Of a stretch of DNA of 64,000 nt, positions 9,357-60,132 are shown piece by piece. How positions within the stretch are numbered: the stretch's first letter is position 1; the number at the start of each line of letters is the position of its first letter. The notes under the pieces are model-generated. The model made no database searches. It was given only the letters and a program-made list of their open reading frames with translations, and was not told the DNA's origin. A program made the position numbers and the translations under genes. This stretch comes from Schmidtea nova (Eukaryota), in NCBI GenBank assembly GCA_044892505.1, contig CM097882.1, positions 323,268,001-323,332,000 on the forward strand. The letters run 5' to 3'.

Positions 9357-10880
9357 TTAATTTTTTTGTGCGAATTGAATGTTGATGGGCGGTTTGTATT
9401 TTTTTATGTAAAAAGTCTCGGAAGCTAATCTTTGTAATGAATTTTTGAATCCCTCTTGTAGAATCTGGCATTTTGTTTCTTCTATAGATGGCGTTGTTTT
9501 GTGTACTTTCTTCCAGTGTTCGTAATAATTACTGGTTTTGTTTTTAGTGTGTTCATTAAGTCGGGTGCGAAAAGTTCTATGTGTTTCTCCTATGTAAGTA
9601 GCGTCACATTTTTGGCAAGAAAGTTTATATACTACATTTTTGGAAAAGCAAAAGCATCGGGTTGTGGAACGGCAAAGACATTTATGTTTGGAGATGTTGG
9701 AAATTGGTGGCTTTCGGAGTTGTGATTTTAACGGTGCGGAGGTTATGAACGTTGGACGGATGTGGATAGGCAAATCTGTTTGATTAAAAATGTTGGTGAT
9801 TTTGTTGGCTGTAGTGTCATTTAGGAAAGGTAATCTTAGATATGTTGTGTGTTTGTTATTGTTATTGTGTTTCTGGCGTTTCCTATTGTTGCGTTTATTG
9901 TGGTATGATTCGTTAAGGAAGTATTTCTTTACAAAGTCTTCAGGGTATCCATTTTGGAGGAATCGTATTTTGAAATTTTCTAATGTTTCTTGTATTTTGT
10001 TTGCGTCTGAACAGTTTCTTATGGCTCTTTTTCTTTCTCCTATTAGTAATGCGATTTTGAGTTGAAGTGGAACGTAGCTTTTCCATGGGAGGATATGACC
10101 ACTATGTAAACTTTTAGAATATAGCTCGGTGCTTACATTTAGTGTATCTTGGCCTTTTGTGAAACTTACCATGGTATCTAAAAACGGTATTTTACCTTCT
10201 GTGTTCGGTGTTTCAAAAGTGAATTGTATGTTGGTGTTAGTAAAATTTGCGTGTGATAGGATTTGATTGAGAGGGATTGTGGAGACTATGAAGATGTCGT
10301 CGATGTATCGTTTCCAGAAAAGTATTTTGTCCCTAAAAAAAGATATGATCTTAGATTCTATAAAGTTCATGTAGAAGATGGCTAAGATGGGAGAAAGGTT
10401 ATTACCCATGGCTAATCCATGAATTTGTTTGAATGGTTTTTCTTTAATTATGACAGTATCTGAATTTATTGCTAATTTTAGAAGTTCTATAAAGTCTTGT
10501 TTAGTTAAGTGTGCGAGGTCAGTATTGGCTTTATGAGTTTCAAAGAAAGAAGCTGCGATATCGAAAATGTTATTCTCTCCGTGAAGAGGAATAGATCCGT
10601 AAAGATTGGAAACATCAAGAGATCCCCAGAAGTACTGTTGTCCTGCGTTTAACGGAAGAGACGTATTTGTAATTTCGGAGACGAATTCAGTTGTGTTTTT
10701 AAGATGAGAAGGAACCAAAGGCAAAAGTGTTTTTACGATTTCTGAAAGAACTTTAGAAAGTGTTGTGGAAGGAGTGTCAACTGCAGATACAAGAGGTCTG
10801 CCTTTTAAAGGACTTTTGTGGTCTTTAGGTAACATAGTCATATTACTAGGTAAGGGCTCACTAAAACTATAAGTGACCAA
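9357..10880 (-). CDS. Penelope-like reverse transcriptase with C-terminal GIY-YIG endonuclease (507 aa, N-terminally truncated)
   Basis: LPKDHK..RP.VS, LDVSNLYGSIP, GLAMGNNLSP, WKRYIDDIF, IQFTFE, IPFLDT; Cys-rich linker KCLC-RSTTR-CFC; NVVYKLSCQKCDATYIGETHRTFRTRLNEH. Confidence 0.96.
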   Translation of the reverse strand: MVTYSFSEPLPSNMTMLPKDHKSPLKGRPLVSAVDTPSTTLSKVLSEIVKTLLPLVPSHLKNTTEFVSEITNTSLPLNAGQQYFWGSLDVSNLYGSIPLHGENNIFDIAASFFETHKANTDLAHLTKQDFIELLKLAINSDTVIIKEKPFKQIHGLAMGNNLSPILAIFYMNFIESKIISFFRDKILFWKRYIDDIFIVSTIPLNQILSHANFTNTNIQFTFETPNTEGKIPFLDTMVSFTKGQDTLNVSTELYSKSLHSGHILPWKSYVPLQLKIALLIGERKRAIRNCSDANKIQETLENFKIRFLQNGYPEDFVKKYFLNESYHNKRNNRKRQKHNNNNKHTTYLRLPFLNDTTANKITNIFNQTDLPIHIRPTFITSAPLKSQLRKPPISNISKHKCLCRSTTRCFCFSKNVVYKLSCQKCDATYIGETHRTFRTRLNEHTKNKTSNYYEHWKKVHKTTPSIEETKCQILQEGFKNSLQRLASETFYIKKYKPPINIQFAQKN

Positions 10881-11414
10881 AGGACAAAGACTAAGGTATA
10901 AACATTAAATTTATATTAAAATTCATCTAAAAAATAATTATAAATAAATTATCACAATTACCAAAAACACTTTTAAATGAAATATTAACAGTATCTAATG
11001 AAAAGGTCATACTATGAAACATACACATGAAGAATAAGAAACTAGAAAAAGGAAAAATTTTGACTTAAATATATTTAAATTAATACACTTATATTATTAA
11101 AATTGATATTTAATAACAAGATCATTAATTTTCTTTCATTGCTCAATAATATTCTATATAGATAGTCATTTATTCTAAATTATTTTATATTTAAATATAG
11201 TTCAATTATTGTTTAGAATTTAGAAAATTGCAAGTTTTTGATTTTCAATTTTTATACTGATTTTTAAAGTAATTTAATATTTTAAATATTCAATAAAAAT
11301 TGTTTCACTTTATGTAATGCTTCAAAGAAAGATTTATTTTAAAATAAATCTATATATACTGTGACTTACATTTTGAAATAAATAATAATCTACATTTCAA
11401 ACAAAGTCATTACA

Positions 11415-12772: not shown

Positions 12773-14660
12773 TCAGTCAATAGAATGAGCTTCTTGGGTG
12801 TCGACGCATTTCTTCTTTAGGTGCCTTCTTTTTATCGGGCTAATTTGTTTTCGTTTCTGCGCTCTTCCGTGGGTTGGACTAGGCGTGTCTGACATTTCAA
12901 GCACTTGTACGGGCGGTGGGAACCACTTGTCTAGCGTTAATGGTCGTATTTAATTCGTCTACTCATTTTGGACGAAAGTTTGAGTCAGGTATCGTTGGCA
13001 ATTCATCAGGGCGTCTCTCTCTAATTGTAAATCAAGGATACTTTGCTTTGCTCTGCTTAATCGATTATTTACCACCTTCGTTTCGTGGGGTGAAAAACAG
13101 CTATTCTCTAACTGTAATACCCTCCGCTTTAAGTTTGCAATTAAATTTGGCTTTCACTGACAACCTCTTCTCGTTTCGATTCTTTTCGTCACACATTTGT
13201 CTCCGGATAGTGTCGAATTCTGTCCAGAATAAAATAACAATACATCCAACACTTCTATAATTTCTCCTCGGTTTGTTTTCACACTCTCACTATCTTCGGT
13301 TTCCCATTATCAGATGGTGTTATTGCTTTAAATTGAACAAAATTTCACGCCCCTCTATATTTCGCCGCTGTTTACAACCTATTACAACTTACGCCTACTC
13401 TGACTTTCCAGTTACGTCAAACTTAATATTCAACTATTTGATACATCTAATATTTACAATCTTTTATTCGAAACTATTCTAATTTCACCAGAGTTAAATA
13501 AAAATAATTATTATAACTGAAAATATTTAGAACAAAACTTTTGTACGATAATATATTACTAAACGACAATTTAAAAAATTTTAAAACACAAATTCGGATA
13601 TCAGTCTACATTATTACATTTCGATCATGCGAATCGGTATCGGTTCAATACTCCTCTGCCTCGGTGGGCTGAGGAAAGAGTCGGTGGTTTCATCGAAATA
13701 GATCGGCTGGAAGATTAACTTGCCCATCGCAATCAATTCTGACATAAACAACATTGTTATACTCCGGTACTTCGCTTGGCTATTCGATGAAGTACTTTGG
13801 GCAGGAAATCGGGTAGGTGATGTCCACATTTATGGAACATTTAGCATTTCTGTGCAAAAATTTTTTTCTGGGCTGTCCCGGTGAAGACTGGATCTCGGTT
13901 CCATTCCTTCTCGCATGAAAGTACTCAGATGCTCCTCGAATATTTCCTGAGCTAGCGATGTCGGAGTGTCCTTTAATGAATAAGTAATTGTGATAGCGGG
14001 ACTCTGTTGATTTGGCATCTTTGGTTGATTGATGAGTTCGTCCACTCCTAGTTCCAGCGCAAATCTTAGCCTCGAGATTGAACATTTCGGAATTTATCTG
14101 TATCGACAAATAAGTTGTTCATAAATAATTACAAATAATGCTCCTCTACCATTGGAATCTATGTGGGTCGGTATAGAAAAATATTTTTTAATGCTCTAAT
14201 ATTGTCGATGGGAATTTTATCAGATTTGTTTCGTCGGTAGAATTACCTTTATAAACGCTCTGCGCCTACCCTGACTATGTGGCCTAATCGTGATATGATG
14301 GATTGAATTTTCATCGCGTTTCTATCGCATTTCCGCTCTATTGTTCGATTTCCTTTATTTAGAAATATAATGATTTTACGGCGGCAATTCACAAAGAAAA
14401 AATTATTTTCCACGCTTTTACGTTCTCGATGTTTCTCGGCAGAGGTACTAATGTAACTGACAATAGGTTTCCGGCCGTTCAATAAGTGTTTTACGGTAGA
14501 ATAATCGGGCGAATTTTAGGTAAACATTGGGTTTTCGGCAATTTATAGTAGACAATAGATAATAAATTTTTCGAAGAACAATGGGGTTTCCTGTCGAAAT
14601 TTTATGAACAACGGGTAGAGATTTTCGTATGACCATAGGTTTCCGGTAGAGATTTTTCAA
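12773..14660 (-). mobile_element. Degenerate copy H of the coding-LTR family (ORF1 and ORF2 remnants; ends not resolved)
   Basis: ORF1 remnant 14045-13614 (SLAQEIFEEHLSTFMREG). ORF2 remnant ~13195-12773 (CFSPHET..LQLERDALMNCQRYLTQTFVQN..IRPLTLDKWFP..QKRKQISPIKRR). Repeated GAAACCYATTG motifs at 14460-14660. Confidence 0.8.
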
Positions 14661-18439: not shown

Positions 18440-18659
18440 AAGGACCTTAGGAAAGAGAGAGTAGCTAGACGCGAAAGACCTATCGACAGCAAGGAGTAGT
18501 TTCGACAGCGAAGCTCATCTGCTCACTGGATTCTCGCCTCCATGTACATTACCAACATAGCTTACCAAGGAGTAACTGGGTACATGGGTGAAGTAGATCA
18601 CATTTATGTTGCGGTATGGGTTGTATCCATTCCTAAAGCCAATAGTAAATTTTTTAACA
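18440..18659 (+). mobile_element. 3-prime structured module (D) of the coding-LTR family, ending TTAACA at a gap
   Basis: GACCTATCG (18477), GAGTAG..GCTC, CATGTAC-ATTACCAAC-...-GTACATG, TTTATGT. Confidence 0.7.
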
Positions 18660-20731: not shown

Positions 20732-21950
20732 TGTTAGTGTTGGGTAATCGGGTTCTTGTTTTTCGGCTTGGCACTATAGTTATGGTAACCACGGCGCCCT
20801 TCATGAATGGTTATTCCCCTCACTTCATTGATGTAGTCATAATTATTCTCCAGTAACTATGCTGATGATGTACCCGGCGGAACGTAAATCAATGAACAGG
20901 TGAGCTTTTTCTATCAAAACAATTCCTCACTGTATCCTCCTTTCATTTTCCCGGTTGGCGATAGAAGGCCTTACGCCACACTTTTGATCTTATCCAACAC
21001 TTCTCCATTCACCTCGGTTGTGTGATTTAAGCATGTGTCTACTATGATTATCGGTAACCGAACTTTACAACGATACGAAGAGTATCAATCATATTAATTC
21101 ATTTATTACATACTAAATACTACATTTAGGAATGCACTAAGGACACAATACATAAGTCATTTATGAAGTCCTTTTATGATAAGACCAGTTATTGATCCAG
21201 CACTTCACTTTGAAGTTGGAACACTTAAGTTTCTCGTCACTGAAATATTTTTCTCTCAATGAAAACACCTGCTCTTCTAATTACACATATGCTCATGTAA
21301 TTTTTGTAGTATCTATTGTGTTACAAATGTGTTATAAATTCGTTTATTCTTTGGTCAATATTTATTCGGATCGGATCATCAAATGTTTCTTTTAAGAAGC
21401 TCATCAGATTCAGATATTTCCACGTGGAACAAGTCACATCAATTTGTAGAATATTACGCGGGTCAAATTTATCTACCCCCGAAAAGAGATTTTCCGATAA
21501 TCTCGGCTGGATCCTTCATTAGCATTTATGTCATCTTAGTAATTCCCCTTCTCTCGTACCGTCATCGCCGAGTTCTTGAATTTTATCAAATTGATTTGTT
21601 ACTATTTGACTAGAAAAATTACCTTAAAGATTCGAACCAAAACTCCATCCGAATGTGAACCTCTCGACAGTCCAAGAGGCCACCAGATCTTCACTTTTCG
21701 TTAGATAGGACTAGACAAAACAAAATCATAAATAAAATAAAAATTCAAACAAAAACTTACGTGCATTTTGTTTTTCCTCTAAATCAATTACAATCAGCAA
21801 AATTTTCAACAAATTGTGTCACTCTCAAATCACGATAAAAGGCTTGTTGACGTATTATTTGAAATGGATTTGACTAGTTCTCAGTTCTAGTCGTTTCGTA
21901 ATGAATCTTCCTCAGTCTCTACTATAATTCTTGATAAAAGGTTGTTATGA
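20732..21950 (-). mobile_element. Degenerate copy K of the coding-LTR family
   Basis: Terminus CCCAACACTAACA at 20732; structured module 20830-20990; ORF2-like KYFSDEKLK near 21240; GTAAGT donor near 21760. Confidence 0.7.
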
Positions 21951-28183: not shown

Positions 28184-30945
28184 TGTTGGGTTAGCGCAGT
28201 GGTCAGGAACAGTTAATAAGCAAGAACAAATAAATAAAATTAAATAATTAACAAAAAAAGTAAAGAAATAAAAGAAACGGTTAAAGAAAAAGAAAAACAA
28301 TAATCAAAATGTTAATATTACTATAAAAGAAAATGGTAACGGAAATAAAAGTACAAAATCCGTTAAAAAAGTACGAAATTATGAAAAAGGAAATAAATTA
28401 AAAAAATAAATATTTATTTATAAAAATAAATCAAAAATTTAAAAGAAAAACAAGGAAGTAAATATAATTAATCAAAACATATTAAATCAAATAATCTGGC
28501 CAATCAAAGGCTCAGATCGATTCTGATTGGCTGATTGAGTACTGAAATTAGTATAAAAGAGACGCTCAATTAGTTGAAAATAGAGAGACACAAAACGACA
28601 AAAAACTGTTTTTAACATAAACAAACACAGTTTTTTGAAACCGTTTCAACTCGTAGCAGACTGTCAACTTTAACCATTTGAACTAATATCTCACTAATCA
28701 ACTTTGAACTGTTCATTGTTTACTAAACCCAACTTGACAGAATTCTAACTTTATTCAAATTGTGTATCATAAGAATATTATTGTAAGTATTTGTGTTTCG
28801 ATTGATAAATATAAATTTTAAAAATTACTAATGCGTTTCAATTCTTGCATTCATTATGTTTTATTCGAAAGGAAATTTTTTTGAAGTTGTGGAGGCCATT
28901 CAGGTCGCCAACTTTGCGATGATTCAGCCATTAATTTTGCCTTTGGTGTAGAATGGATAGCGGGATCGTCGGCAATTGGTATTAAATAATTGTAAACTGT
29001 TGCAGTAGCAGGGTTCCGGAATTCTAATGTCACTCAGTTAATTCCTTTTGATAGATTCAAAGATGGTTGTTACTAGACTTCAGTTTTGACTAGCTTAATA
29101 ATTATAGAGCCGATTTAATTTAATAATCATAACTTAATAATTCAGTGTAAATCCGTTGGATACAGTTTTGTTCATTTTCCATATTCGCCTCTTCACTGAA
29201 CTTCAGATTTTACTCTACAGTGTTGACGCGCAAACAGATTTAAAATAAAAATCGAGAAAAGGAGTTTTAGACACCACACTGGTAGTCCACCATAAAATTT
29301 TCATGCCTCTCGCTGACTAATGAAAATCTATAACACTGAGTACTGTAATCATTTAGAGAATCAGACGAGCGAAACGCACTCTAAATTAAAAGCATTCGGT
29401 CACTTACCTCCCATGAGATAAAGTAACGACTGACAATATTAATTGCATTCCCTCGTATAGTACTCGCGATAAATAGCAAGGTATGCGTAGTTCGAACACT
29501 CCACAGCTCAGTGACATCACATCGTAACAGAGAACTCTGTGGGGTATGGAAATTTCACTTCGTCGCACGTAAAGTATAGTATTAAAACCTCCATTGAATC
29601 CACATATAACATTAATTGAAAACCCATTAGTGAGATAGACATCTGTTAATTATGACTAAAAGTAAGCGCGTAAACAAGATGAATAAACTCGAATAGATAA
29701 ACTCTAAAAACCCATTAGTCGACTGATGAGATATAGAATTCGTTAAGTGCATGCAATTAAATTAAATTTTCCTATACTAGTGTCAAAAATTAATAATAAA
29801 ATTTCTACTGATTGTGGTAAAGGGTCATTGCATAATTACGTCACGCCAAAAAGACCATTTTGACTAACCCACCCACCCTGTCACTCTTGGTCACATTTCC
29901 CTAGACCCACACACCCCCAATCGTGACGTCATTTTATTGTTCACGAAATGGGGGTAGCCTAGTGGTACCATAAGCCATTCAAAATATAAATTTACGGACA
30001 GTTGAAACAGATTAAAAAAAATTTAATGATTCAAACAAGTAAAATGAACTTATGGATTTTAAAATTATTTCGAGCACTTCATTTAAAATGTTTAAGCAAG
30101 ATCATTTTAAAATTTTTTTAAAATCGTAGCTTTATTAGTCATAGTTGTCCAGTCAAAGTATCAGCATCATTGTAGCATAGGAAGATTGTTGTAATTAGAA
30201 CTTTTTTGGTCTAACCGGTCCATTATAAAATACAACTAGAAGTGACGCCACGTTCAGCTCAACTCACTCACCCACCCACGTCACGTTTCGTCACGTTTTC
30301 AAAAAATTGTAAACGGTACCTTACCCAGAAATTTGTAGCGGACGACATCAGATATTTAATAAGATCAACGACCTTGGTCGAATAGTACCAAACACCACAT
30401 CGAATGGACCGCCAGTAAAGGGTAAAAAGTGAAAGAGGATCAGCTCGCAGAAGCGACAACGAAAGAAAAGATAATTGATGGAAAAATGATGAAATCGCAG
30501 GATGTGCAATAAACTTTTGTAATGCAAATAACGATCATAAACAAATGTATTACAACGAGTTGATTCTTCTTAATTTATAATTAAACAAAACTTAAATAAT
30601 AAAATAGGGCATATTGGACAAAGCACATTTAAACGGTAAGCTAGGAGTTCAGCGAACGCACTCTAAATTAGTGACTAGTGATAAAGGGTAAGATGGGATT
30701 AGATAAAGACCTTCTATTGGTCAATAAGGAACCCGCGAGAATGGTAGGATCGGGAGTAGTTTTTGCAAAGAAGCTCACCTGCCGATTCACATTCGCCTGT
30801 CATGTACATTACCAAGTTAAGTACATAGGGTATTTACAGGTACATGGACAGTAAGCTTTTTATGTGTTGTAGTGCGACCCAAGATAAACAAAATTTTATA
30901 AAATTAAAAAATACAAAAATTAAAATAAGCACTAGCAACCTAACA
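28184..30945 (+). mobile_element. Complete copy C of the coding-LTR family (2762 bp)
   Basis: TGTTGGG...CCTAACA with TTTT on both flanks; CTGATTGG and TATAAAAG at 28523-28560; GTAAGT donor at 28783; ORF2 remnant 30305-30475 (NCKRYLTQKFVADDIRYLIR..KRISSQKRQRKKR); structured module 30680-30870. Confidence 0.8.
29821..29945. mobile_element. Possible PIF/Harbinger-type MITE remnant inside copy C
   Basis: TAA|AGGGTCATTGCATAATTACGTCAC...CACCCACCC...CGTGACGTCATTT; a related partial copy lies at 30240-30300. Confidence 0.35.
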
Positions 30946-31744: not shown

Positions 31745-31975
31745 TGTTGGTGTATGGGTTATTAAAATACTCTGTTACTAGGGTTACGACGACCATGACA
31801 CTTCATGAATCACATGAATTACTCATAACTAACTACTCCTCGGCAATTATGTTGGTGATGTACGCGATGGTATGAGAACCGATAAGCAGGTGACTTTCAC
31901 TACCAAGACTAATCCTCATTATATTCTTCTTGCGGGTTCCTGACTGCCGATAAGTCTTACGTCGAGTCTTCATTA
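31745..31975 (-). mobile_element. 3-prime structured module (I) of the coding-LTR family
   Basis: GACTTATCGG..GGAACCCG..GTCACCTG..GTACATCACCAACATAAT...GTTATG; terminus CACCAACA at 31745. Confidence 0.7.
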
Positions 31976-40180: not shown

Positions 40181-43100
40181 TTTATTCCCCCATAATTTTA
40201 TCGTCAATGATATTACCCTAATTAACATTGAAATTAATTAAAATAAAAAGATTATTCAAAATTTCATGTATTTAAAAATAATTAATTAATTTTCTCAAAG
40301 ATAAAATAGAAATAAAATAGAAATATTCTTAAAAGATTAAAAAAAGAAAATTACTCAAAAAGGAAAAGTTACTGATGCAATCTTAACTTTTATTGCAGCA
40401 TGTATAATGGAGTGGGGGTAAAAATACTAAATGTTCCGATATCGGAACACTGGGCAAAAAGGGGTTAATATAATATTTTTTTGAAGTTAAATGCGTTATT
40501 TTTTGTTATATTCATGTTCTTTAAATTTTAGTAATTTAAAATCAATAGAATTTTTGGAAGTTGGAGATGGTTTACTGGGTCGCCAGCTTCGCTGTAGTCC
40601 GACTTTTAACTTTCGAGTGTAGAGTGGATGGTAGAGCAACCGACCAAAGATAACAGAATGGTAAAACTAAATTAATGAATATTGAAATCAGTGGTGGTAT
40701 GGAACGTCAGTTTTCCACGTCAGCAACTAGGATTAAATTTTAGTAAACTATAACATAGTAAAATCACTATAAAGGAATAGAGATAGGAACCTGCGTACGC
40801 TACTTGGTTATTACCTGAGGTAACCCCGGTAGTAGGGAGAAATAATCTGGTTAATTCGAAGCTTAAAAATTGATTATCTATATGAGATTGGGGAAAATCT
40901 TTCAGATTAAAATCCATTAGTTGACGAGAAAACAATTGTTTAATACAGTCCATTAGTAGGTGCTCAACATTTTCGTTGAAAATCCATTAGCGACGGGTAA
41001 AAGTTAATTAACTAAATTCATTAGCCGGGGAAAACTTCTATTCGTTTAGGACAACCTAAATTGTTGACTGAAGTAAGGAAATTTAATAATGAAGTCAAAA
41101 TATCCATTAGTTAATGATTGCGTAATTCGTCTGTCGTAGTAGGACAGTGTAAGGAAATGATTGTACTTAATTGATTGACAGATAAAGTCTGTTTTTTAAA
41201 ATAAATTATGATTAAATAATTTAAAGAAATCTGAGGCCTAAAAATATGTCATTAATGTAAAAATTCAATATTTATTTCCCACTAGCATTAGAACTGACGA
41301 TGGCACAGATATACGATCAAAAATATCATGAGACCCAAGGGACAGGGTCCACAAGAATCATTTCAATCATAAAAAAGGGTTCATAGAAAAATAGTATGAA
41401 AACTTTCTGGTAATGGCGATGCCCTTAAAGACAAATATTTCTACCAAATTGTTACAATAAATATTCGCCGAGCATGAGGCGCACTTCAGACGAACGGGGA
41501 GGCGCCGAGCTTTAGCCTCCATCGTGAAAGTCCCGACCACATCGTGTGACATAGGGGACCAGAATGACCTCATCGATTCTGAATACGACTATCCACGGGA
41601 CACTCCAAATTATGCTGTTTAAAACGACGTACCATTGACTGAGAAAGAGCATATTTTCACCTGCGGAGATGAATGGAGTGAAGGACAAACTTACCCGAAT
41701 ACGCCAAAGTAATGAAGATCTAAAGATGGAATTGGAAGCTATCAGGATAAAGCTGCGCAATTGCAAACGTTATTTAACGCAACGGTTTGTTGCAAATGAT
41801 TTGAAAGAGGTAATTCAACCCCTTACTTTTTCGAAATGGTATCCGACCACTGTCTAAACGGAGAATTCTGACAAGGTACAGGAAGAACCGAGAAAGATGC
41901 CCAAGAAACGCAAGAGGATTAGTTCTCAGAAACGACAAAGGGCGAGAAAACAACTGATAGCCAAGTCAAGCGAATCCGAGAGTGAACAATGATAAACATT
42001 GATATACTCTGTTGAGTGATTGTTCTAATTATATGTATGATATTGTGCTTTATTTGGTTATTTGTGCGAGCTTTGAATAAATTAAAATCAATTGAAATCA
42101 ATAAAGATCAACGAAGAAAATGTACGACAACTCAGAGATAAGTTTTAGACTGTCTTGTGAGATAAACACACCTTGAATGAGTGACCCGTGAAAGGGTGAG
42201 TAGGATAAAATTGTGAAAACCTTCTATCGGTCATTAGGGAACCCGTGAGAACGAATGAATCGGGAGTAGTGTTAATGCAGAGGCCAACCTGTCGATTCAA
42301 ATTCGCCTGACGTATGCAGTACCAACGTAAGTACAAAGGATATATACGAGCATACGAGAGGAAAGCTTTTTATGTGTTGTGTTGCGACCCTAGACGAGTA
42401 AAGATAAATGTGATTAAATTGCATAAATATTTCAAGCACACAACTGCTGGGCCAGCCAACACACAAAATCAAACCCTAGAAACAGGAATAAATCAATAAA
42501 ATTAACTTTTTTTTCTCGGATCACTGAGAAATCTGAAAATAAAATAATAGAATCATTAAATCAATTAAAAACATAAGAAATAATACTTCAGTTTTGCGAG
42601 GAACAACATACTTCAACGATTCTAAAATAACTAATAAAACAATTTTAAACACTCGAGAGTTCAATTAAGGGGAAAACAAAAATAATATTCAGTAATCATA
42701 ACGAATTAAAAACAACCAAGTACCAATTATGAGCCAACAGATGAATTCTGATTGGTGAGGACTACAAGCGGAATGAGTATATAAACAGTGGTTATTTAGT
42801 CAAAAGGAACACCTTTTTCACCTTGTGTAGAATTTTCACATTGAGACAACTGTTTACTTGTAACTACGTTGGAGGCGAAAATAAAGGTATTGTTGTAATT
42901 TGATGTTGTTAATTATATTCATCCTCATGATATTTTCTAAGCTCAGTATGATGGTAAGGGCACGTCCCGTAAATCTAACGTCTCGACGGGCGATAATGGG
43001 CCTCCCGACCGACACTCTTCGCAGTGTTGGCGGTGCGGCGTACGATAACTAAAATGAACGGGGAAGGGGAAAGATCGCACATTGGGGCATCGAAAGACAT

Positions 43101-43254: not shown

Positions 43255-43785
43255 ACCAACTTTAAACTACCAAAACCCTAGGTAGAAGAACTATCATGTT
43301 CCAAGGCAATAATGCGCATTGAGATCACTAATCGGCTAGATCCGACTAACATCGACAATTAGAATTTTTCAGTATGATAGCCAATAGGCTCGGAACAAGT
43401 ATTACTCGTCCCATGAGCAGATGAAATAGACCAACTTTAAACTACCAAAACACTAGGTAGAAGAACTATCACGTTCCAAGGCAATAATGCGCATTGAGAT
43501 CACTAATCGGCTAGATCCGACTAACATCGACAATTAGGATTTTTCAGTATGATAGCCAATAGGCTTGGAACAAGTATTACGCGTCCCATGAGCAGATGAA
43601 ATAGACCAACTTTAAACTACCAAAACCATAGGTAGAAGAACTATCACGTTCCAAGGCAATAATGCGCATTGAGATCACTAATCGGCTAGATCCGACTAAC
43701 ATCGACAATTAGGATTTTTCAGTATGATAGCCAATAGGCTCGGAACAAGTATTACGCGTCCCACGAGCAGATGAAATAGACCAAC
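43255..43785 (+). repeat. Three near-identical 175-bp tandem units inside copy B
   Basis: ACCAACTTTAAACTACC starts at 43255, 43430 and 43605, with a partial start at 43780. Confidence 0.97.
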
Positions 43786-45375: not shown

Positions 45376-45945
45376 ATGGAAGTACTAAAATCATGCATAG
45401 ACACCGACGAGCGACGATAGTTATATCGACGAATTCACCTCCTCGAGGGTAAAATAAATCGCCAGGATCTGGAGCTGGAGGAATTGAAAAGAACTTGGTT
45501 CAACCCTGAAAAAACAAAAGCGATATTTAAGAGTCGAGACAGAGTGGAAAGGGCGCTGGAGGAGCAGGCCCGGGAAACTGCGGCGACCAAACTAGAGTTA
45601 AATTGTTGCCTACGATCCTTAACTAGCGAATTTCTAGAGACTCATCTAAAGACGCAAATACGAGAAAACACATTTGAACGTTGGGTCCCAACTCGACGAG
45701 AAACCGTAGAAACATAGACCGAGAATCAACCCGCCGCAAAGATGCCTAAGAGTGTCGAAACAGGGGTAGCGAGGGACATGGTCAGCGAACCCTTCAAGGT
45801 AAAGAAACGCAATCGGTTAGGAGCCAAAAGGCACCGAGAGCGAAGGGCACTCGCGAAGAGAATAGGGATCGAAGTAGATCTCCAGAGTGGGTTAACCGAA
45901 AACCAATTAGTCAACGTGATAAACACTAGTATCTTTTTGAATTAA
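45376..45945 (+). pseudogene. Copy B ORF2 (coiled-coil/Arg-rich family; 2 in-frame TAG)
   Basis: tatAG|ATG start; WFNPEK, AATKLEL, FERWVPT, RNRLGAKRHRERRALAKR and LTENQL all match copy G ORF2. Confidence 0.8.
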
Positions 45946-46302
45946 ATAAAGGTTTTGTGTTAGTTCATGCGTTTTGTTTGTTTAGCGTATGCATGAGAAA
46001 AGAGAAGGATGTGGAGAGTGAACGAATGCACAAAGGGTGAACATTCATAGAAAGGGACCGAAAGAAAACCACACGAGACCTATCGGTAGTGGTGGACCTG
46101 TAGCCTTAATGGGGGAATAGTAGTCTTTCGACTGCTCTCCTGACCTATTAAGCTACAACGCTTAGTGCAGTACCAACATGAGGCGCAATTAGGGGCAAAT
46201 CATGGGCACGAGCGAGGAAATGTTTTTATGTTGGCCAGGTGATCCTAATCTTTCCAACCAAACACACCTGTGTTTGAACAATATCAACCAACACAACTAA
46301 CA

Positions 46303-51370: not shown

Positions 51371-52508
51371 TTAAAGAAGCATTTCACCTTTCTCAGCCAA
51401 CAAACGCAATCTTTTGTCTGAATATATTTGTCCCGCTCCACTAAATAGTTGTTCATTTGGGACACTTAAAGCTGGAGGGGATAAATATTTCCGCGCAAGA
51501 ATAGATAGTGCACCGAATTGATTCAGATTTTGGCGCCAACACAAGTATGGGTCTTCGTTTCGAATTAATAATGGCGCTAACAAATAATTATCAATCATTT
51601 TCAACATTTCTGCCGCTTCATTTGCTGATTCAACCGATTCACTGGTAGGAAAATGATTCCATAGCCAAGATTTTGCAAGTGGTGCAGATTTCCGGACTGC
51701 ATTTTTTTCATTTACTGTCGTCACAGAAATATCATCCTTTTTATCTACTTTAATTGCTGCCACCTCTTCCTTCAACCAAGTTTTTGCCATCAATACGGTT
51801 TCATCACTGTCAAATATCCGATCTTTGAAACGAGGGTCGAGCACCGTGGCCAGAACGAGTGTTTTACTTTTTGCAGTATCTGAAAACCTCGTGTTTCTCA
51901 AAACATTCCGTTATATAATGTCCAGTAAAACTTAAAAGTGAAATTCCAGTTGACGGATCAGACCATACATCAGTGGTAAACCTAATATCTTTCTCGAAAT
52001 AAATGAGTGCCTTTATTTTTGATTGAACTTTTCGGTACATGTTTGGAATTAATTATGTTGCAAAAAATTTTGGGCTGGGTAACTTATATCGCTTTTCTGC
52101 CTTCTCCATCACACGTCTGAACCCAATATTTTCAACCATGGTGAATGGTTGCGCATCAACGCAAATCATTTCTCCTATTAATCTGTTCCAAGAGAGTGCT
52201 CTTGATTCATTAAAATCCCAAGCGATTGAGCGATCAATTACTTCTGATATAATAGGTTGGTATGATAAATGTCCAGACGTAGATTCCACCCTAGATGTTG
52301 TTTTTTTTGTCGTTTTGAACTTTAAATATTCGATTTCATGCTTATATTTCAAATGACTTATCAAATTAGTTGTCGAATAGGACTTAGGCTCCTGCCCACC
52401 CCGAGAAACTGCCTCATTGCAGACTTAGAAATTTGCTTTGCTGACATCTAGAGAATTAACGTCGAAAACGGCCCAAATATTACTGGTCATCATCGATGGT
52501 GTTGGCAT
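51371..52508 (-). pseudogene. BED-finger hAT transposase (ZBED1/ZBED4-like) with catalytic-core deletion
   Basis: IWAVF..VCNE..STTNLISHLKYKH (BED); QPFTMVENIGF; FTTDVWSD; ATVLDPRFK; LARKYLSPPALSVPNEQLFSGAG. Confidence 0.9.
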
Positions 52509-53393
52509 GGTAAATTTCCAATTGTAATTAAATAAATTTAATCGAATTATTGATTTAAAAAATTAACGGAAACCAATAATGATTAATTTCAAAATGTAAA
52601 CAACCCAGACATTCTATACGGTCTAACGATATATGTTTTCCATTATCATCAATATATAGAACAGAATTTTCACATATATAATTATAACGGTGATTGTTTT
52701 TCACTATATATTTTGATTCTACAGCATTGATAGTAAAAACCATGGTCGCCGGATCATATTATTTGAAGTTTATGTCGTTAGATAATGCAAATGTAGTATT
52801 TTCATTTACCCCACTTAAAAAATATCGGTATTATACCTATCGGCACATATATTTCCGGCCGATACCGATATTGCCGATATGAAGATGTTGGGGTTGTGGA
52901 GGGGTTGTTAAAGGTGTATATGCATGTCAAAGTTCTAGGGATTCTCCATCCACAGCCCCACATAACTTTATCGTCGACACGCGTATGCCCTTGACTATTC
53001 CCTACTAGTCAAGTTGGTACTGCATACGGTGGTGGAAAAATGATGGGCAGGTGAGCTTTGTTGCCAAAACTACTCCCCATTTATCTTCCCTCGGGTCCTT
53101 GCTGCCGATAGAAGGTCTTACGCATTTACATTCTATGGATGTTCGTTTCCCACTGAATTTTATACTACATATCCTTATGATCTATCACACGCTTTTCCCA
53201 ATTGCACTCTCCTTCGCTGTTCTACGAGCCTACGAAACTCCCGCTGCTAAGTCACGGTCGGTGGAGGTTTTATGACGCGATTTTTATTTCTACGATTTAC
53301 CGGTGTTGTCTTATTTTATTTATTAAAAGCACACGATGAGAGACAAAATTAAAAAAAAAAAACACTTTTATTAAAACAAAAAAAAACAGGTTG

Positions 53394-53999
53394 TTATTTG
53401 ACATTGACGTTTTCGTACGCAAACTCCAGGCTAATCTCCTGAATCAACTCTTCTTCGGTCAAGGTGTTTAAGTGGTGGATTTGCTCGTCCAGTCGCTTCG
53501 CAAATTCTCGGCGACGACGACGCTGTCGCGATCCCATTCGGTGTTTTCGAAGCTCTTGGTTTAGGACAGGTGCTGACGCCATTGTTCTCGATGGATCACT
53601 GTGAAAAGTAGGCAAATCGTCCGTTACAAGAGTCGGGGCCATGATGATCCCATCTTCCGTTCCGCATGCGACATCTTGATAAGTATTTTGCGTCCAGCGC
53701 TGAGCGGTAATCGGCCGGATTAACGCGCGTAATTCGGAGTCGATATAACTTCTTGTTACTGCATTTAGGCAATTACGCAGTTCTCTCTGGACGGCGTCGA
53801 GTTCTAATTTAGTTGCGGCCAGTGCTTCCTGCATTCGCTCGAGTTTTTGCGATTGACCCTTCATTTGCTCGGGTGAGAACCACTTCGCTCTCAGTTCATC
53901 ATTGGCTACCGTGAGTCGCTTGATCTGCCGCTGCTGGTCCCTCAACTTCCTATCTTGGATTTGTCCCATGACTCTCCTAGAGTTTTCTGAAGTCGGCAT
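53394..53999 (-). CDS. Novel 201-aa coiled-coil protein with Arg-rich motif (family ORF2)
   Basis: Intact ATG ORF with heptad-like N-half and RKHRMGSRQRRRRREFAKR. Homologous remnants occur in copies A, B, C, H and probably K. Confidence 0.8.
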   Translation of the reverse strand: MPTSENSRRVMGQIQDRKLRDQQRQIKRLTVANDELRAKWFSPEQMKGQSQKLERMQEALAATKLELDAVQRELRNCLNAVTRSYIDSELRALIRPITAQRWTQNTYQDVACGTEDGIIMAPTLVTDDLPTFHSDPSRTMASAPVLNQELRKHRMGSRQRRRRREFAKRLDEQIHHLNTLTEEELIQEISLEFAYENVNVK

Positions 54000-54336
54000 G
54001 ATGTCTGAATGTTATAACGATAAATTCGCTGGAGGACCTATCAACAATGTTATTTTATTTAGACGACTATTTACGATTGAGGAGCAAAATGCGTACTACT
54101 GTGTTCAAGTATTAAATCTTTACACAAAAAAAAATATTTTGCTATTTAATGATTGGAGACTCAAAATATTTATTTAACTATTTTACACTAGTGAAAGAAT
54201 TTCCTACTGACTGTAACATCTACAACACTGGATATTAATAAGTTTCTCATCTATATTGCAACACTATTAATAAAATGGAACACTCAGATTGCTCTAAAAC
54301 ATTTATTTAATTTAAAATAGGTGGCCACCGATTTAA

Positions 54337-54813
54337 CTATCCATCTTCGGTCATTTTCCCTCGGTACGAAAATATCGATCTGATTTGTAGATGAGAGCTG
54401 ATTCCAGTGGAGTTGGGTGAGGCTTGCTGGAGACGGGTCCTCTCGGCTTCCCGAAGGGGTCGTATTGCCGTATGGAAAGTGAACCCTAACTCCTTGAATG
54501 TGGAGGCTGGAATGAACCCCCAATAAATCACACAGCTCGGGAATCCCCGTTTATCTAACATCAGGACGAACCAGGCGGCGTGCCATGATTCGAATTCCTC
54601 GTCTGGGATGATTGGCCAGCTAGCGCAGCCTCGGTACCACACGTGATGCCGTGGGTGGTCCCATACTGTAAAGGGACATGCTGTTTCAAGCTCTCGGCGC
54701 CATGCCCACATTTTTTGATGTATTTGTTGCAAAATCTCAAATGGAGCCGGCTTTAATGGGCTGATTCGGGCTCGTTCTCGTCGTTTTTTGATGGTGAATC
54801 TGTGTTTGGTCAT
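54337..54813 (-). CDS. Novel 158-aa Trp-rich protein with basic N-terminus (family ORF1)
   Basis: Intact ATG ORF 5 nt after a tttAG acceptor. Homologous remnants occur in copies B and H, and possibly A. Confidence 0.72.
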   Translation of the reverse strand: MTKHRFTIKKRRERARISPLKPAPFEILQQIHQKMWAWRRELETACPFTVWDHPRHHVWYRGCASWPIIPDEEFESWHAAWFVLMLDKRGFPSCVIYWGFIPASTFKELGFTFHTAIRPLREAERTRLQQASPNSTGISSHLQIRSIFSYRGKMTEDG

Positions 54814-55760
54814 GGTACTAAAACGATGATGAATTTTATAATAGTTAACAATTTAAATCAATGATTAATTATATTAGATGTTATCTCTCATCGTGATGCC
54901 TTTATTATTTGCCTTCCCCTTAGACCTTAACTGAAATCAAGAAAAACTGTTGCTCGTTACGGTATACATTACTCTCGCGTCTGCTTAGATTTATCTATTT
55001 ATGATCAATAATATAGTCGAAAATTGGTGATTTGTCTGCGTGGACATCGAAACATTGGTATCTCAAAACGGAAACTCTCTCACATCATGTATCTCCTAGC
55101 TTACTCGGAAAACGCCCCTTTCGTATCAAATGCGGTCGACATAATTTTCCAAGGTTTATTAGGTGTTTATTTAGCAACTGTGCTGTGGTGAGGGTGAAAA
55201 ATTGTGCCTCCTCACAGTCAAAAATTCTTTCCTATCCTACATCGTTAGACTTTATCCGAAAATCGTCTCCTCTGTAGCTAAAATGATTCGAAAAATAATT
55301 CCCCGGATTTGTTGGGTGTCCCATGTGCAAATTCTGTCAACTACACAAAAAAGTCATATTTTGTTATTCATTACTTTACCGTGTGTGGAGCCCTCGAGCA
55401 CCACGCCACGGACGGACACCTTGGTAACCTAAAGCTCCCAGTCGGCGCAAAATTAATATGATCATTATATAGTTTAAATGCAAACATGATAATTCACAAT
55501 CAATAAATTATAATGTGATAACATATGATTACAACAATATCAATAATAAGCATAAATATAACAAAAATACCTAAATTGAATCCCAAAAATTTGTTCAGTT
55601 AAAATCGGTAAAACAGTGATCGTCTATTGAAAATCAGTCTTGTTAATCTCAACTTAGTGGTGATCTCAGTCTGAACAATCTAACAATCTAATGTGAATCT
55701 AACAAAGTCGCAATCTGAACAAAGTCTAAGTCTAAATTTTAGTCTGATTTTATGAAAAAT

Positions 55761-55805
55761 CTGATCAGTATTTATACTGATCAGTCGTGTCTAGACCGAC
55801 CAATC
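55761..55805 (-). promoter_or_regulatory. Pol II core promoter of copy G (CCAAT box plus TATA inside an inverted repeat)
   Basis: Minus strand CTGATTGG...CTGATCAGTATAAATACTGATCAG. The equivalent CCAAT/TATA spacing recurs in copies B and C. Confidence 0.6.
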
Positions 55806-56638
55806 AGGTTTGGCCAGTTTCATGGTGGGTTTGATTATTATTTTGTTGATCTAATTAATTTTTATTTTTTAGATTGGATTCTTTCTCGGTGGTCTGGGTT
55901 TCAAAAACAATTATTCAATAACAAGTACTTTTTATTTTGTTTTAATTATTAATATTAATATTTTATTTGTTTTTAGATGTCTCCTGGGCCAGTTAATATT
56001 TAGAAATGTCTTTAATTCGTTTATTTTTATTTATAGTTTGTTCCTAATTTATCTATATTTTAACTATATTACTCTTTTCTTTTAACTTATTATTCCCCTT
56101 TTTACCTTATTTTTTCTCTTTTTTGTTTTAATTATTATACTTTTATTTCACTTTTCCCTCTATTTGGCTGGCCCAACAAAGATATCGGCACGCCGATATA
56201 TCGGTAGACGTCTATAAATATGTTTATTTATTTTTGTTAATTATTAAATGAATCAATTAATAATAACGGTTTAGTGAAAGTTTAGTAACATAACTCTTAT
56301 GAAATATATCTCAGCAAACATCTCATACAGAAATTCATTCCAATGAGTAAAATGATCAACGAAAATCAAGAACAAAGTTAAATCTATTAATTACGTATCT
56401 TGCAAATATATTATAGATTTTAACTTCCGAGAAATAAAATTCTTTTATTGTAGTATAATTGAAATTTATAAACTTAATTTGTAATATATTAAAATCAATT
56501 TCGGAATCTAATTCTTTAATTTAATCAACTTTTCACATTGTGAATTTAAGCAACTTAGAATTTTAGCGATATTGTTGGGCTAAACAAAGAGCCCAAAAAG
56601 TTAATAAAGGAATATTGGGTTATAAATGAGTAGTCGGT

Positions 56639-58300: not shown

Positions 58301-59717
58301 CAGTCAAATCTTGTTACTATGTTACTTGCCAGGATCGAGCAAGAGTAGCATAGTAACGAGTGTTTGTAAAAATATATTTATTTTCTCAAGTTACTTATGC
58401 GACCAAAGCTCTCAAGAATTGTCGATTGGCGCATCTTTTGGCGGATCTCGTGTATATCGTTATCTAACTAATCTCACGCTTGAATCGCACCTGGCTTCAC
58501 ACTTTTCTGGTGCATGAACTTCCGTTCGGGGCTCCAAGCGCTCGAACTTCCTAGAATGAAACGACTTCCGCCTCAACAGTTATATTGTCATCCTTGCTTC
58601 CAATCAGCTCTTCACTGCATAGCATCTCCTCCAGTGTAAAATTCCCACCAGTCGCGAGGCGCTCATCAGCTTTGAAAAAGTCAGACAGCTCGATCTCCTC
58701 GTTCTCGTGGATCTTTTCCTTGGCAGACAGAGCTTCCTAGATATCGAGCAGCTCCGCATCCTGTACCTCAATTTGGATCTCCTCTTCAATAAACTTAGCC
58801 TTCGTGAAACAATTTCTAATCGTCGACTTGCTGACCCGCAACCAAGCACGCCGAGCGACATGTAAAACGTCAAGCAACATAAACTTAAACTCATTTCCTT
58901 TATCCATGAACTCAAGTTTGCGACACAGCAGGAACTTCTTGTATTGGCGTTTGAGGTTTTGTATGATTCCTTGATTCTTTGGTTGTGACTCAGCTGTCGT
59001 GTTGGGTGGGAAGAAGACTAGTTGAATGTTGTTCAGCTCGAGCTCGGGAGGGTAACCAGTAAAGTTATCAAGACAAACCAACACTATGTCCCTGCTGGCT
59101 AAGTCTTCCGTCCCACGCACGCAATATTTCCTTGAAAAGCTTCGTCGTCATCCATGCCTTAGAGTTCGCCTTGTATTCGACTGGGATCTCCTTGTTCTTG
59201 AAGGCATGGGGTCTTTTGGAAGCGCCAATTACCAGAAAAAGAAACTTTTCACTGCCATTCATATTAGCACCAACTAAACGAGTGATCCTTTACTTATTTT
59301 TCTTTAATCCTGTACACTGGTTTCCTCTGAAAGCCATGGTCTTGTTCGGAATTAGTTGCCAGAAGAGTCCTGTCTCATCCAGGTTGAAGACGTCGTCTGC
59401 AGGGAAATGTGTGAGTAATGACCGGAGAATTTGCTGTTGCCACTCAAAAAGAGATTGTAAATCTACTGCTCCAGCTTCGCCATTCATCGTCTTGAACGTG
59501 ATGCCGTGGCGTTTTTTTAAATTGTCTAACAAACCGTCGCTCGCCATGAAGTTTGTAATATGCATCAGCTCGATCAGTTTCATCGTCTTCTCCTTTATCA
59601 AATCACCGCTGACAAGCAAATTCTGTTCTTTTGCTTGCTTCAGCCATATGAGCACTCCCTCATCAAGCTTCGGGTTGTGGCATAGTATCGAGGTGGCATA
59701 GTAACAAGATTTGACTG
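58301..59717 (-). mobile_element. Tigger/pogo transposon with frameshifted CENP-B HTH + DDE_1 transposase
   Basis: Perfect 21-bp TIRs CAGTCAAATCTTGTTACTATG; LDEGVLIW, ASDG..KKRHGI, DVFNLDETGLFW, LFLVIGASKRP, SKAWMT, VLVCLDNFTGY, FFPPNTT..QPKNQGII. Confidence 0.93.
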
Positions 59718-59721
59718 GATG

Positions 59722-60132
59722 TATATATATAATTACTATAATAACATCCATATAAATTTTATTTTCTGTATTAGTTACATTTATTTATAATTTTTCTCAA
59801 TTTTAATTTATTTATGAGAGATTAATTATGATAGATAATTTTTTTAATAAATTTAGAGTGAATAAGACATTTTTTCCGACATTACAGTTCCAAACAAAAA
59901 CTTCTAAAACAAAAACTAATACTTTTATCGCTTAAACGTTGGTTTTTGTCATTTTTTCAATTAGCAATAGAATTTTAAGAGCCTTAATACCTATTACAAT
60001 AGCTGGAGATGAATACATAGTTAACAATCTTAACATGAACATTATAATTATTATAGTAGGCTGTTTTGAATTCGCGTGCTGGGGTGCCAGATATGTGAAC
60101 CGCACAGGGCGCAATAATGCCTTGTTACGGCC

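Follow-up and report, generated by a model that had tools for sequence, protein, structure and literature searches.

Introduction

A protein-coding gene inside a long terminal repeat (LTR) is known from MMTV, whose LTR holds sag, the gene of a membrane superantigen. The gene examined here, ORF2, shares this position. Unlike sag, it encodes no hydrophobic segment (maximum KD19 0.89), is one of two LTR genes, is kept in five families and belongs to an invertebrate element.

Among regulators of retroviral RNA, Rev, Rex and Rec are characterised as CRM1 adaptors (PMC10746203, PMC12724133). ORF2 resembles Rev, Rex, Rec and Rem in having a basic helix that is an NLS candidate, predicted oligomerisation helices, an LTR RNA structure (as in RxRE and RcRE) and a likely spliced mRNA from the 3' end (PMC10746203, PMC3504254, PMC12724133). 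It differs from them in that its gene lies wholly in the LTR and in its long coiled-coil N-terminus, its LC8-like motif and its lack of a CRM1 NES pattern. The invertebrate precedent is CERV of the C. elegans element Cer1, which is made from a spliced mRNA and required for unspliced RNA export, with shuttling not shown (PMC10309623). CERV and ORF2 are both orphan accessory proteins of an invertebrate gypsy element with a candidate NLS and leucine-zipper-like or heptad helices (PMC10309623). CERV is, by contrast, a large protein encoded outside the LTR; its N-terminal part is the same as that of Gag, and it contains globular M and G domains with a Cys loop (PMC10309623). Homology of the two is not claimed.

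The element that carries ORF2 is of a known kind, a Burro-like Ty3/Gypsy retrotransposon. Compared with the description of Burro/GYPSM1 of planarians, both are about 28-30 kb long with multi-kb LTRs and a polyprotein of roughly 5,000 aa, and both have a Gag zinc knuckle, an in-frame mononegavirus-like fusion protein between Gag and protease, RT-RH-IN, ankyrin, and TRAF/MATH on an accessory ORF (PMC6431247). TRAF/MATH lies downstream of pol here, unlike in that description, whose section on these elements mentions no LTR genes, LTR RNA structure or operon-like accessory genes (PMC6431247). No description of genes inside Burro LTRs was found in the literature searched. The present analysis adds tests of selection, conservation across five families, an LC8-like motif, a link to a covarying RNA and the failure of the NES test.

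Results

The LTR and its element families

The window is the whole analysed stretch of 64,000 nucleotides of Schmidtea nova DNA. ORF2 lies in a solo LTR bounded by a target-site duplication:

52886..56178, minus strand: solo LTR of 3293 bp, TG...CA, of a giant Burro-like Ty3/Gypsy family (family G), from identity, ends and flanks
52882..52885: target-site duplication AAGA, left copy, from the flanks
56179..56182: target-site duplication AAGA, right copy, from the flanks

Over its whole length this LTR shares 83-98% identity with other copies and with the LTRs of complete elements, and it has no partner LTR within the 64-kb window. A search of the genome returned at least 150 matches of 85-100% identity (the best 150 of 9,252 candidates). 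Among the matches listed, 35 same-strand pairs 11-50 kb apart were counted by hand, and 26 of these are spaced at 25.0-25.5 kb. Two family-G pairs are 3340-bp LTRs, 99.8-99.9% identical, around an interior of ~22 kb. Full-length pairs of this family have TG..CA ends, 4-bp target duplications and, 3' of the 5' LTR, a PBS-like TGGGGGCTC, which we take to match tRNA-Pro. Three of five close copies of the window LTR that were checked are also solo LTRs, and one is followed by a PBS with its partner 25.4 kb away. The ORF2 copy in the window is likely a recent passenger.

Full elements measure 28.5 kb in family G, 29.6 kb in D and 25.3 kb in C. The family-G interior runs from a RING ORF through a long polyprotein to a TRAF/MATH ORF and two unnamed ORFs, and the polyprotein contains zinc knuckle, Monjiviricetes fusion protein, protease, RT, RNase H, integrase and ankyrin domains (Pfam). 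The order Gag-fusion protein-PR-RT-RH-IN, with ankyrin and TRAF/MATH cargo, was found in families G and D (Pfam). ORF2 occurs in both LTRs of the young families G, D (3538 bp, 99.5-99.6% identical) and C (about 3595 bp, 99.8% identical) and in LTRs of the old families B and E; in the latter two the homolog is followed by the LTR end, with a PBS after some B and old C-type copies.

Several further observations concern these elements and their surroundings. A RING-finger ORF between PBS and gag in families G and D (L031:9531-9992, L144:5564-6022) carries a TQT motif. The last internal accessory ORF (L034:266-856, L070:2266-2928) has a hydrophobic N-terminus and a segment of KD19 about 3.1, and looks like a small membrane protein in sequence. 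One family-C element (L068-L070, G000:C1:88349455-88374740) has Gag, fusion protein, protease and ankyrin matches, and matches to RT, RNase H and integrase were absent among the nine ORFs scanned; this young element, with LTRs 99.8% identical, is likely non-autonomous and keeps both LTR genes. The solo LTR lies next to the remains of a hAT transposon (51371-52424, minus strand), recognised by a hAT dimerisation domain and a weak BED finger, and probably sits inside that transposon. The window also contains a Penelope-like ORF with RT and GIY-YIG domains (9357-10904, minus strand), Tc5/pogo-type transposase pieces (HTH_Tnp_Tc5, DDE_1; 58737-59784, minus strand) and, at 43255-43785, three tandem copies of a 175-bp unit that are 97% identical.

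ORF2 and its homologs

The open frame is real, and a second gene lies upstream of it in the same LTRs:

53394..53999, minus strand: ORF2, 201 aa here and 194 aa in most copies, open from ATG 53999 to the stop at 53394
54337..54813, minus strand: ORF1, 158 aa, second LTR gene with AG 4 nt before its ATG, from selection and homology across G, D and C
12815..13174, minus strand: decayed ORF2 homolog, C-type, from the profile
30302..30471, plus strand: ORF2 homolog fragment, C-type, with RNA module at 30699-30884, from the profile
41624..41959, plus strand: decayed ORF2 homolog, C-type, with RNA module at 42191-42395, from the profile
45376..45939, plus strand: decayed ORF2 homolog, family B, with RNA module at 46079-46231, from the profile

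The usual product is taken as 194 aa because the frame stops at codon 195 in 23 of the 30 best loci; the window copy reads 7 codons further. ORF1 is 26-30% identical across G, D and C and has a codon-model omega of 0.16 in G and 0.20 in D; its predicted structure, at a pLDDT of 36.5, is too poor for use.

The initial annotation had counted five to six divergent copies in the window. A profile built from 35 natural copies recovers five (best E values from 4.7e-08 to 2e-68) and, at E<0.5, detects no further one. ORF2 itself is covered at 53427-53981 (minus strand), and the other four homologs carry stops. The consensus motifs proposed for these copies were partly too generous. (W/Y)F(S/N)P is overstated, with W in two of the four copies that cover the site and I and C in the other two; L(K/Q)(L/M)E(L/R)xA is overstated as well and matches two of five; I(R/Q)P(L/I)TxxxW matches three of five. 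NCxRYLTQxFV is likewise present in three of five but not in ORF2 itself, which reads NCLNAVTRSYI. The three basic blocks (53493-53528, 45829-45861 and 41906-41941) and the LTEEELIQEISLEF tail (53421-53462) are present exactly as described. Across the 35 copies F41, P43, E73 and T98 are invariant, and K47, R55, E66, C77, L90, I94 and W102 are at least 90% conserved. Pairs of families are 31-41% identical where alignable, and C and E 45%.

Selection on ORF2

That this conservation reflects past selection is confirmed by dN/dS. Pairwise NG86 values among 51 intact G sequences are 0.13-0.16 at dS>0.1 and 0.61 among near-identical pairs, and those among 25 family-D copies are 0.06-0.14; the codon-model omega is 0.21 in G, 0.13 in D and 0.13 in B (15 copies). 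Since these G, D and B sets had been chosen as intact and by protein similarity, copies were picked again by a non-coding spacer. Of the 29 so obtained, 26 cover ORF2 (three were dropped), and 21 of the 26 are free of stops and frameshifts. Their dN/dS is 0.13 in the 17 more diverged copies and 0.43 in the nine closest, and variants found in at least two spacer-picked copies give 0.15 against 0.35 for private ones (Fisher p=0.004). Third positions hold 63% of the ORF2 differences. The check for a dN/dS near 1 thus came out for selection, at 0.13-0.21. Selection keeps ORF2 in lineages that replicate, and the gene decays once a copy has inserted.

A chance open frame, or a dead relic copied along with the LTR, would suit the location of the window copy in a solo LTR and the dN/dS of 0.43-0.61 in near-identical pairs. 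It is very hard to reconcile with a between-lineage dN/dS of about 0.13, with the excess of third-position differences, with the 21 of 26 intact spacer-picked copies and with protein homology between families that can hardly be aligned at the level of LTR DNA, and we give it hardly any weight. For the ORF2 family as a whole, non-function is excluded by dN/dS, intact copies and cross-family protein homology.

Anatomy of the ORF2 protein

The following parts of the protein are referred to below:

53871..53882, minus strand: WFSP kink between two heptad helices, with F41 and P43 invariant, from alignment, model and constraint
53655..53675, minus strand: DVACGTE, constrained motif in the disordered part, candidate LC8 site (pN/pS 0.11 against 0.61 in the next 31 residues)
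53493..53528, minus strand: Arg-rich core of the basic helix (RQRRRRREFAKR), from alignment and constraint
53421..53462, minus strand: amphipathic tail helix, constrained in G and D, absent in C and E, with no classical NES

The predicted structure (mean pLDDT 76, pTM 0.39) has helices at residues 5-38, 43-90, 96-110, 149-179 and 182-198, with disorder at 111-147. Hydrophobic periodicity of 3.5 residues is found in residues 14-40 (p=0.0075) and 43-78 (p=0.010) and not in the tail, which supports heptad-type helices and with them the coiled coil proposed earlier. By region, pN/pS in family G is 0.04-0.12 in the helical core, 0.11 in DVACGTED, 0.61 in the linker, 0.13 in the basic helix and 0.09 in the tail. 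The profile of family D has the same shape (basic helix 0.04, xGT motif 0.10, tail 0.13).

The basic segment comprises 15 indel-free columns common to all five families, in which two basic clusters flank one hydrophobic and two small residues. Its core has 7 Arg in 12 residues in G and 5-9 K+R in 12 across all 35 rows, and is mixed Lys/Arg in four of the five families. Among the accessory ORFs scored, ORF2 contains the most net-basic 12-mer (6 in G, 5 in D, 4 in C). The Arg-rich motif of the initial annotation is hence sound as a sequence feature, being constrained in both G (0.13) and D (0.04). Its conservation appears to exceed what a simple NLS would need, and the helix may be both an NLS and a groove binder. 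The acidic/hydrophobic tail is less general: it is present in the window ORF2, and B tails exist, but it is absent from the 13 C/E alignment rows, even from family C, which is young and intact.

DVACGTE aligns with xETQTE of family B. At 109-115, TQT stands in 11 of 17 B rows with one-off variants in the other six, CGT or IGT (xGT) in G and D, and TNT in young C; most old C-type and E rows have no LC8-type anchor there. The pattern of LC8 clients is a TQT in a disordered stretch next to a coiled coil (PMC6607443, PMC12057147), anchors with Gly occur (PMC12057147), and many TQT peptides fail to bind (PMC6607443). The motif is accordingly a candidate LC8 site by sequence. A predicted complex of two ORF2(1-125) chains with two chains of the same genome's LC8 scored 0.58, against 0.57 for the control. 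This genome has about 20 LC8 (dynein light chain) genes, which are intronless, full-length and clustered on one contig (G000:C2 about 5-45 Mb; L164-L176, L186).

Searches for relatives

The single protein and the 35-row alignment found no homolog among 5.8 billion proteins (near lengths only), and the profile gave none at E<=0.001 among 1.84 billion representatives. The best entries of the ESM atlas reached 0.89 and 0.82 with low recognition, and no ORF2 relative was among them. Pfam and NCBIfam gave scattered weak matches only, PDB sequences a best E of 0.23, and metagenome and viral contigs no homolog. Foldseek, in rows covering residues 1-98, returned nothing at E<=0.001 and generic helical hairpins only, and the best VIA-align hit (Z 8.7 over residues 8-116) is a hairpin of the same generic type. 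Likeness to Rev, Rex or Rec was seen in neither sequence nor fold (Pfam, PDB sequences, Foldseek, VIA-align; fold rows for residues 1-98).

We rejected identity with Gag or L1 ORF1p, since no library match was found, with no capsid, zinc knuckle or RRM-CTD domain among the Pfam results, and the profile finds nothing in element interiors (best E 0.3); the element's Gag lies elsewhere.

Test of the proposed export signal

The tail had been suggested to hold an export signal. We scanned six CRM1-type NES spacings (non-canonical NES lie beyond them) and obtained no match anywhere in the window ORF2, while 55% of shuffles of its own tail match. The tails of two family-D copies gave none, and another D copy has two matches somewhere in the protein. 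In family B, 15 of 17 tails match, as do 68-95% of their shuffles. With the tail also missing in families C and E, the suggested signal fails. A reading of ORF2 as a Rec/Rem-type CRM1 adaptor is accordingly weak, and a Rev/Rex-like mode of action stays the leading hypothesis.

A covarying RNA module in the LTR

An RNA module of ~170 nt lies 3' of ORF2 in families G, D, C, B and E:

52945..53130, minus strand: structured RNA module, likely the R region, from conservation and covariation
53367..53372, minus strand: AATAAA, candidate 3'-end signal followed by T/G-rich sequence, about 20 nt past the ORF2 stop

The structure has five helices, with 89.5% of cells paired and two-sided changes in 17 of 26 pairs, against 32-42% in slid controls. 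It was scored on 33 hand-picked diverse copies, three of the helices were derived from the same alignment, and relatedness inflates the shuffle test. The conserved LTR RNA structure next to ORF2 is thus upheld as a covarying module in five families. An Rfam search with it gave nothing above gathering. It has a near-invariant unpaired CTCACCTG that resembles the U1 5' end, and GNRA-capped hairpins in G, D and C. A TAGGG loop could pair with a downstream CCCTA across a T-rich motif; such a pseudoknot is not significant by length (longest pairing 6.0 against 5.4 in shuffles, 29 of 33 copies parsed). Further module copies, with no ORF2 remnant detected nearby, lie in the window at 18460-18623, 20838-20977 and 31831-31961.

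In family G a TATAAA stands 47 nt before the module, and in G, D and C a T-rich TATGT motif lies 3' of it, 80-110 nt before the LTR end (about 80 nt in the window). On the simplest map the module would be R and both ORFs would lie in U3. This U3/R/U5 map is provisional because a strong AATAAA also stands directly after the ORF2 stop and, if used, would put the module in U5. In HTLV-1 the RxRE bridges the poly(A) signal and the GU-rich site, and the layout here of structured RNA, T/G-rich motif and about 80-110 nt to the LTR end resembles it (PMC3504254). The adjacency of ORF2 and the module does not itself indicate an interaction, because it is expected from shared LTR ancestry.

Candidate splicing and 3'-end signals

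A candidate splice acceptor directly precedes ORF2:

54005..54006, minus strand: AG of a putative 3' splice acceptor, 5 nt upstream of the ORF2 start codon

In all 46 G copies scored (of 51), all 16 D copies scored (of 25), 4 of 4 C and 8 of 12 B copies, the ORF2 start codon is preceded by an AG at a distance of 1-5 nt, and 5 of 5 E copies have one at 7 nt; these counts come from related, non-independent copies. Of 11 internal accessory-type ORFs, 10 have a YAG no more than 3 nt ahead of their first ATG, and neither of two polyprotein-internal Met codons is preceded by one. The spacers between several cargo genes are 100-120 nt long and contain TGTAAATA on the sense strand only (6, 4 and 9 occurrences against 1.1-1.4 expected). 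Those after pol (L033:7069-9142, L146:4582-6650, L070:790-2289) contain TGTAAATA and A(A/T)TAAA, and each ATG there is closely preceded by a YAG. The layout of the accessory genes after pol is operon-like. Flatworms trans-splice, and Macrostomum operons have a spacing peak at ~100 bp (PMC8629364).

Sense-strand GTRAG donors are rarer than in shuffles (21 against 55, 24 against 54, 37 against 54), a deficit due in part to stop-codon avoidance. Donor-like sites are present near the element 5' end, and cis-splicing is thus also conceivable. No GT..AG joint was found among the 15 joints listed out of 19 (four runs of unknown kind from one study), a result that is silent on expression. Because the accessory ORFs carry acceptor sites and 3'-end-like signals, the full-length RNA likely needs protection; we infer that a genomic RNA of 25 kb has to pass many of them without being processed.

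Discussion

We regard it as plausible, though short of an even chance, that the ORF2 product is an RNA-binding regulator of full-length RNA processing or export, analogous to Rev, Rex and CERV and probably without a classical CRM1 signal. We favor this reading because ORF2 has the most basic 12-mer among the accessory ORFs, the LTR contains a structured RNA, the need exists and CERV provides a precedent. The LTR location, the selection, the five-family conservation, the model helices, the covarying RNA and the acceptor- and 3'-end-like signals are established here. Beyond them, the ORF2 mRNA would be short, spliced or SL-trans-spliced, and would come from the copy in U3 of the 3' LTR. The product would form a dimer or oligomer through its heptad helices, possibly clamped by LC8, and its basic helix could act as NLS and as a groove-binding RNA helix. 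It might then bind the LTR RNA module, so that genomic RNA would be protected from internal processing and exported from the nucleus.

Several observations argue against an RNA regulator. The window ORF2 has no CRM1-type NES pattern, and the tail is absent in C and E although C is young and keeps ORF2. No likeness to Rev, Rex or Rec was found in sequence or in the fold of residues 1-98. Rev-type proteins are small, whereas ORF2 has about 190 aa with a long coiled part, and its basic block is mixed Lys/Arg in four of five families. The proximity of ORF2 to the module would follow from common LTR descent, and use of the AATAAA right after the ORF2 stop would place the module in U5. In family B, moreover, the basic block has a bZIP-like spacing that points to DNA. 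The strict Rec/Rem form of the RNA regulator, in which the Arg-rich motif binds the module and the C-terminal tail is a CRM1 NES, appears improbable. The tail is hydrophobic, acidic and constrained (pN/pS 0.09 in G, 0.13 in D), and family-B tails fit class 1c spacing, but no pattern is found in G, B does not exceed its shuffles, the tail is missing in C and E, and where present it is modelled as a stable helix and not as a free peptide.

The spacing of the family-B block leads to a different target for the same helix. The basic region of bZIP proteins has the spacing N-x7-R, which the B block fits, and a basic helix with small central residues, joined to a coiled part and a short tail helix, would suit a dimeric DNA binder. 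ORF2 might then be a transactivator or anti-silencer of the LTR, similar to foamy Tas or bZIP proteins, with the basic helix in the DNA major groove. A counter-silencer would have a reason, since Burro of S. mediterranea is reported to be silenced by nuclear PIWI (PMC8532177), and LC8-bound transcription factors exist, as ASCIZ shows (PMC6607443). We nevertheless consider a DNA activator unlikely, if worth keeping in view: no bZIP or HLH match is among the 25 Pfam families listed for the 35 members at E<=1, bZIP clusters reach only 0.78 in the ESM atlas, below significance, only 17 of the 35 rows have the Asn, the basic helix is not followed by a zipper (heptad power p=0.07 and 0.99), and an acidic activation region common to all families is absent. 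Membership of the bZIP class itself is rejected on the Asn count, the missing heptad zipper and the Pfam result. The LC8-like motif opens a third route, in which ORF2 would be a host-targeting or structural accessory, an LC8-clamped coiled-coil scaffold with non-specific RNA binding whose basic block is an NLS or a general grip. We think this rather doubtful, whether it took the form of an RNA chaperone, a small-RNA or dsRNA decoy, or a particle or trafficking adaptor. TQT in 11 of 17 B rows with one-off variants in six and the constrained xGT of G and D (pN/pS 0.11, 0.10) speak for it, as do the setting in disorder beside a coiled coil, which is that of LC8 clients (PMC6607443; Gly anchors PMC12057147), and the other cargo (RING, TRAF, ankyrin), which targets host pathways. 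Most old C-type and E rows nonetheless lack the anchor, and many TQT peptides do not bind LC8 (PMC6607443). LC8 binding would in any case define no function, because it fits both nuclear models too.

Returning to the RNA regulator, its most far-reaching version combines an operon-like programme with an LTR-encoded, independently evolved switch of the Rev/Rex type, in which an LC8-clamped coiled-coil protein, its basic helix bound to the covarying LTR RNA, would allow read-through and non-CRM1 export of the 25-kb genome. We hold the combination as a whole to be unlikely, though a serious option. If true, each cargo gene would have its own acceptor and 3'-end signal, possibly used via host SL trans-splicing, and thousands of solo LTRs would spread the gene and its response element in the host genome.

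Regulatory genes in the style of complex retroviruses are barely known in invertebrate LTR elements, with CERV as the precedent found. A selected orphan LTR gene and a covarying RNA in five families make a defined candidate protein-RNA pair, which can address how the RNA of a 25-30-kb retroelement with many acceptor and 3'-end signals survives and gets exported. If no CRM1 signal is needed, the Rev problem would have been solved here in a new way. Through the many solo LTRs, the regulator and its element could come to lie throughout the host genome.
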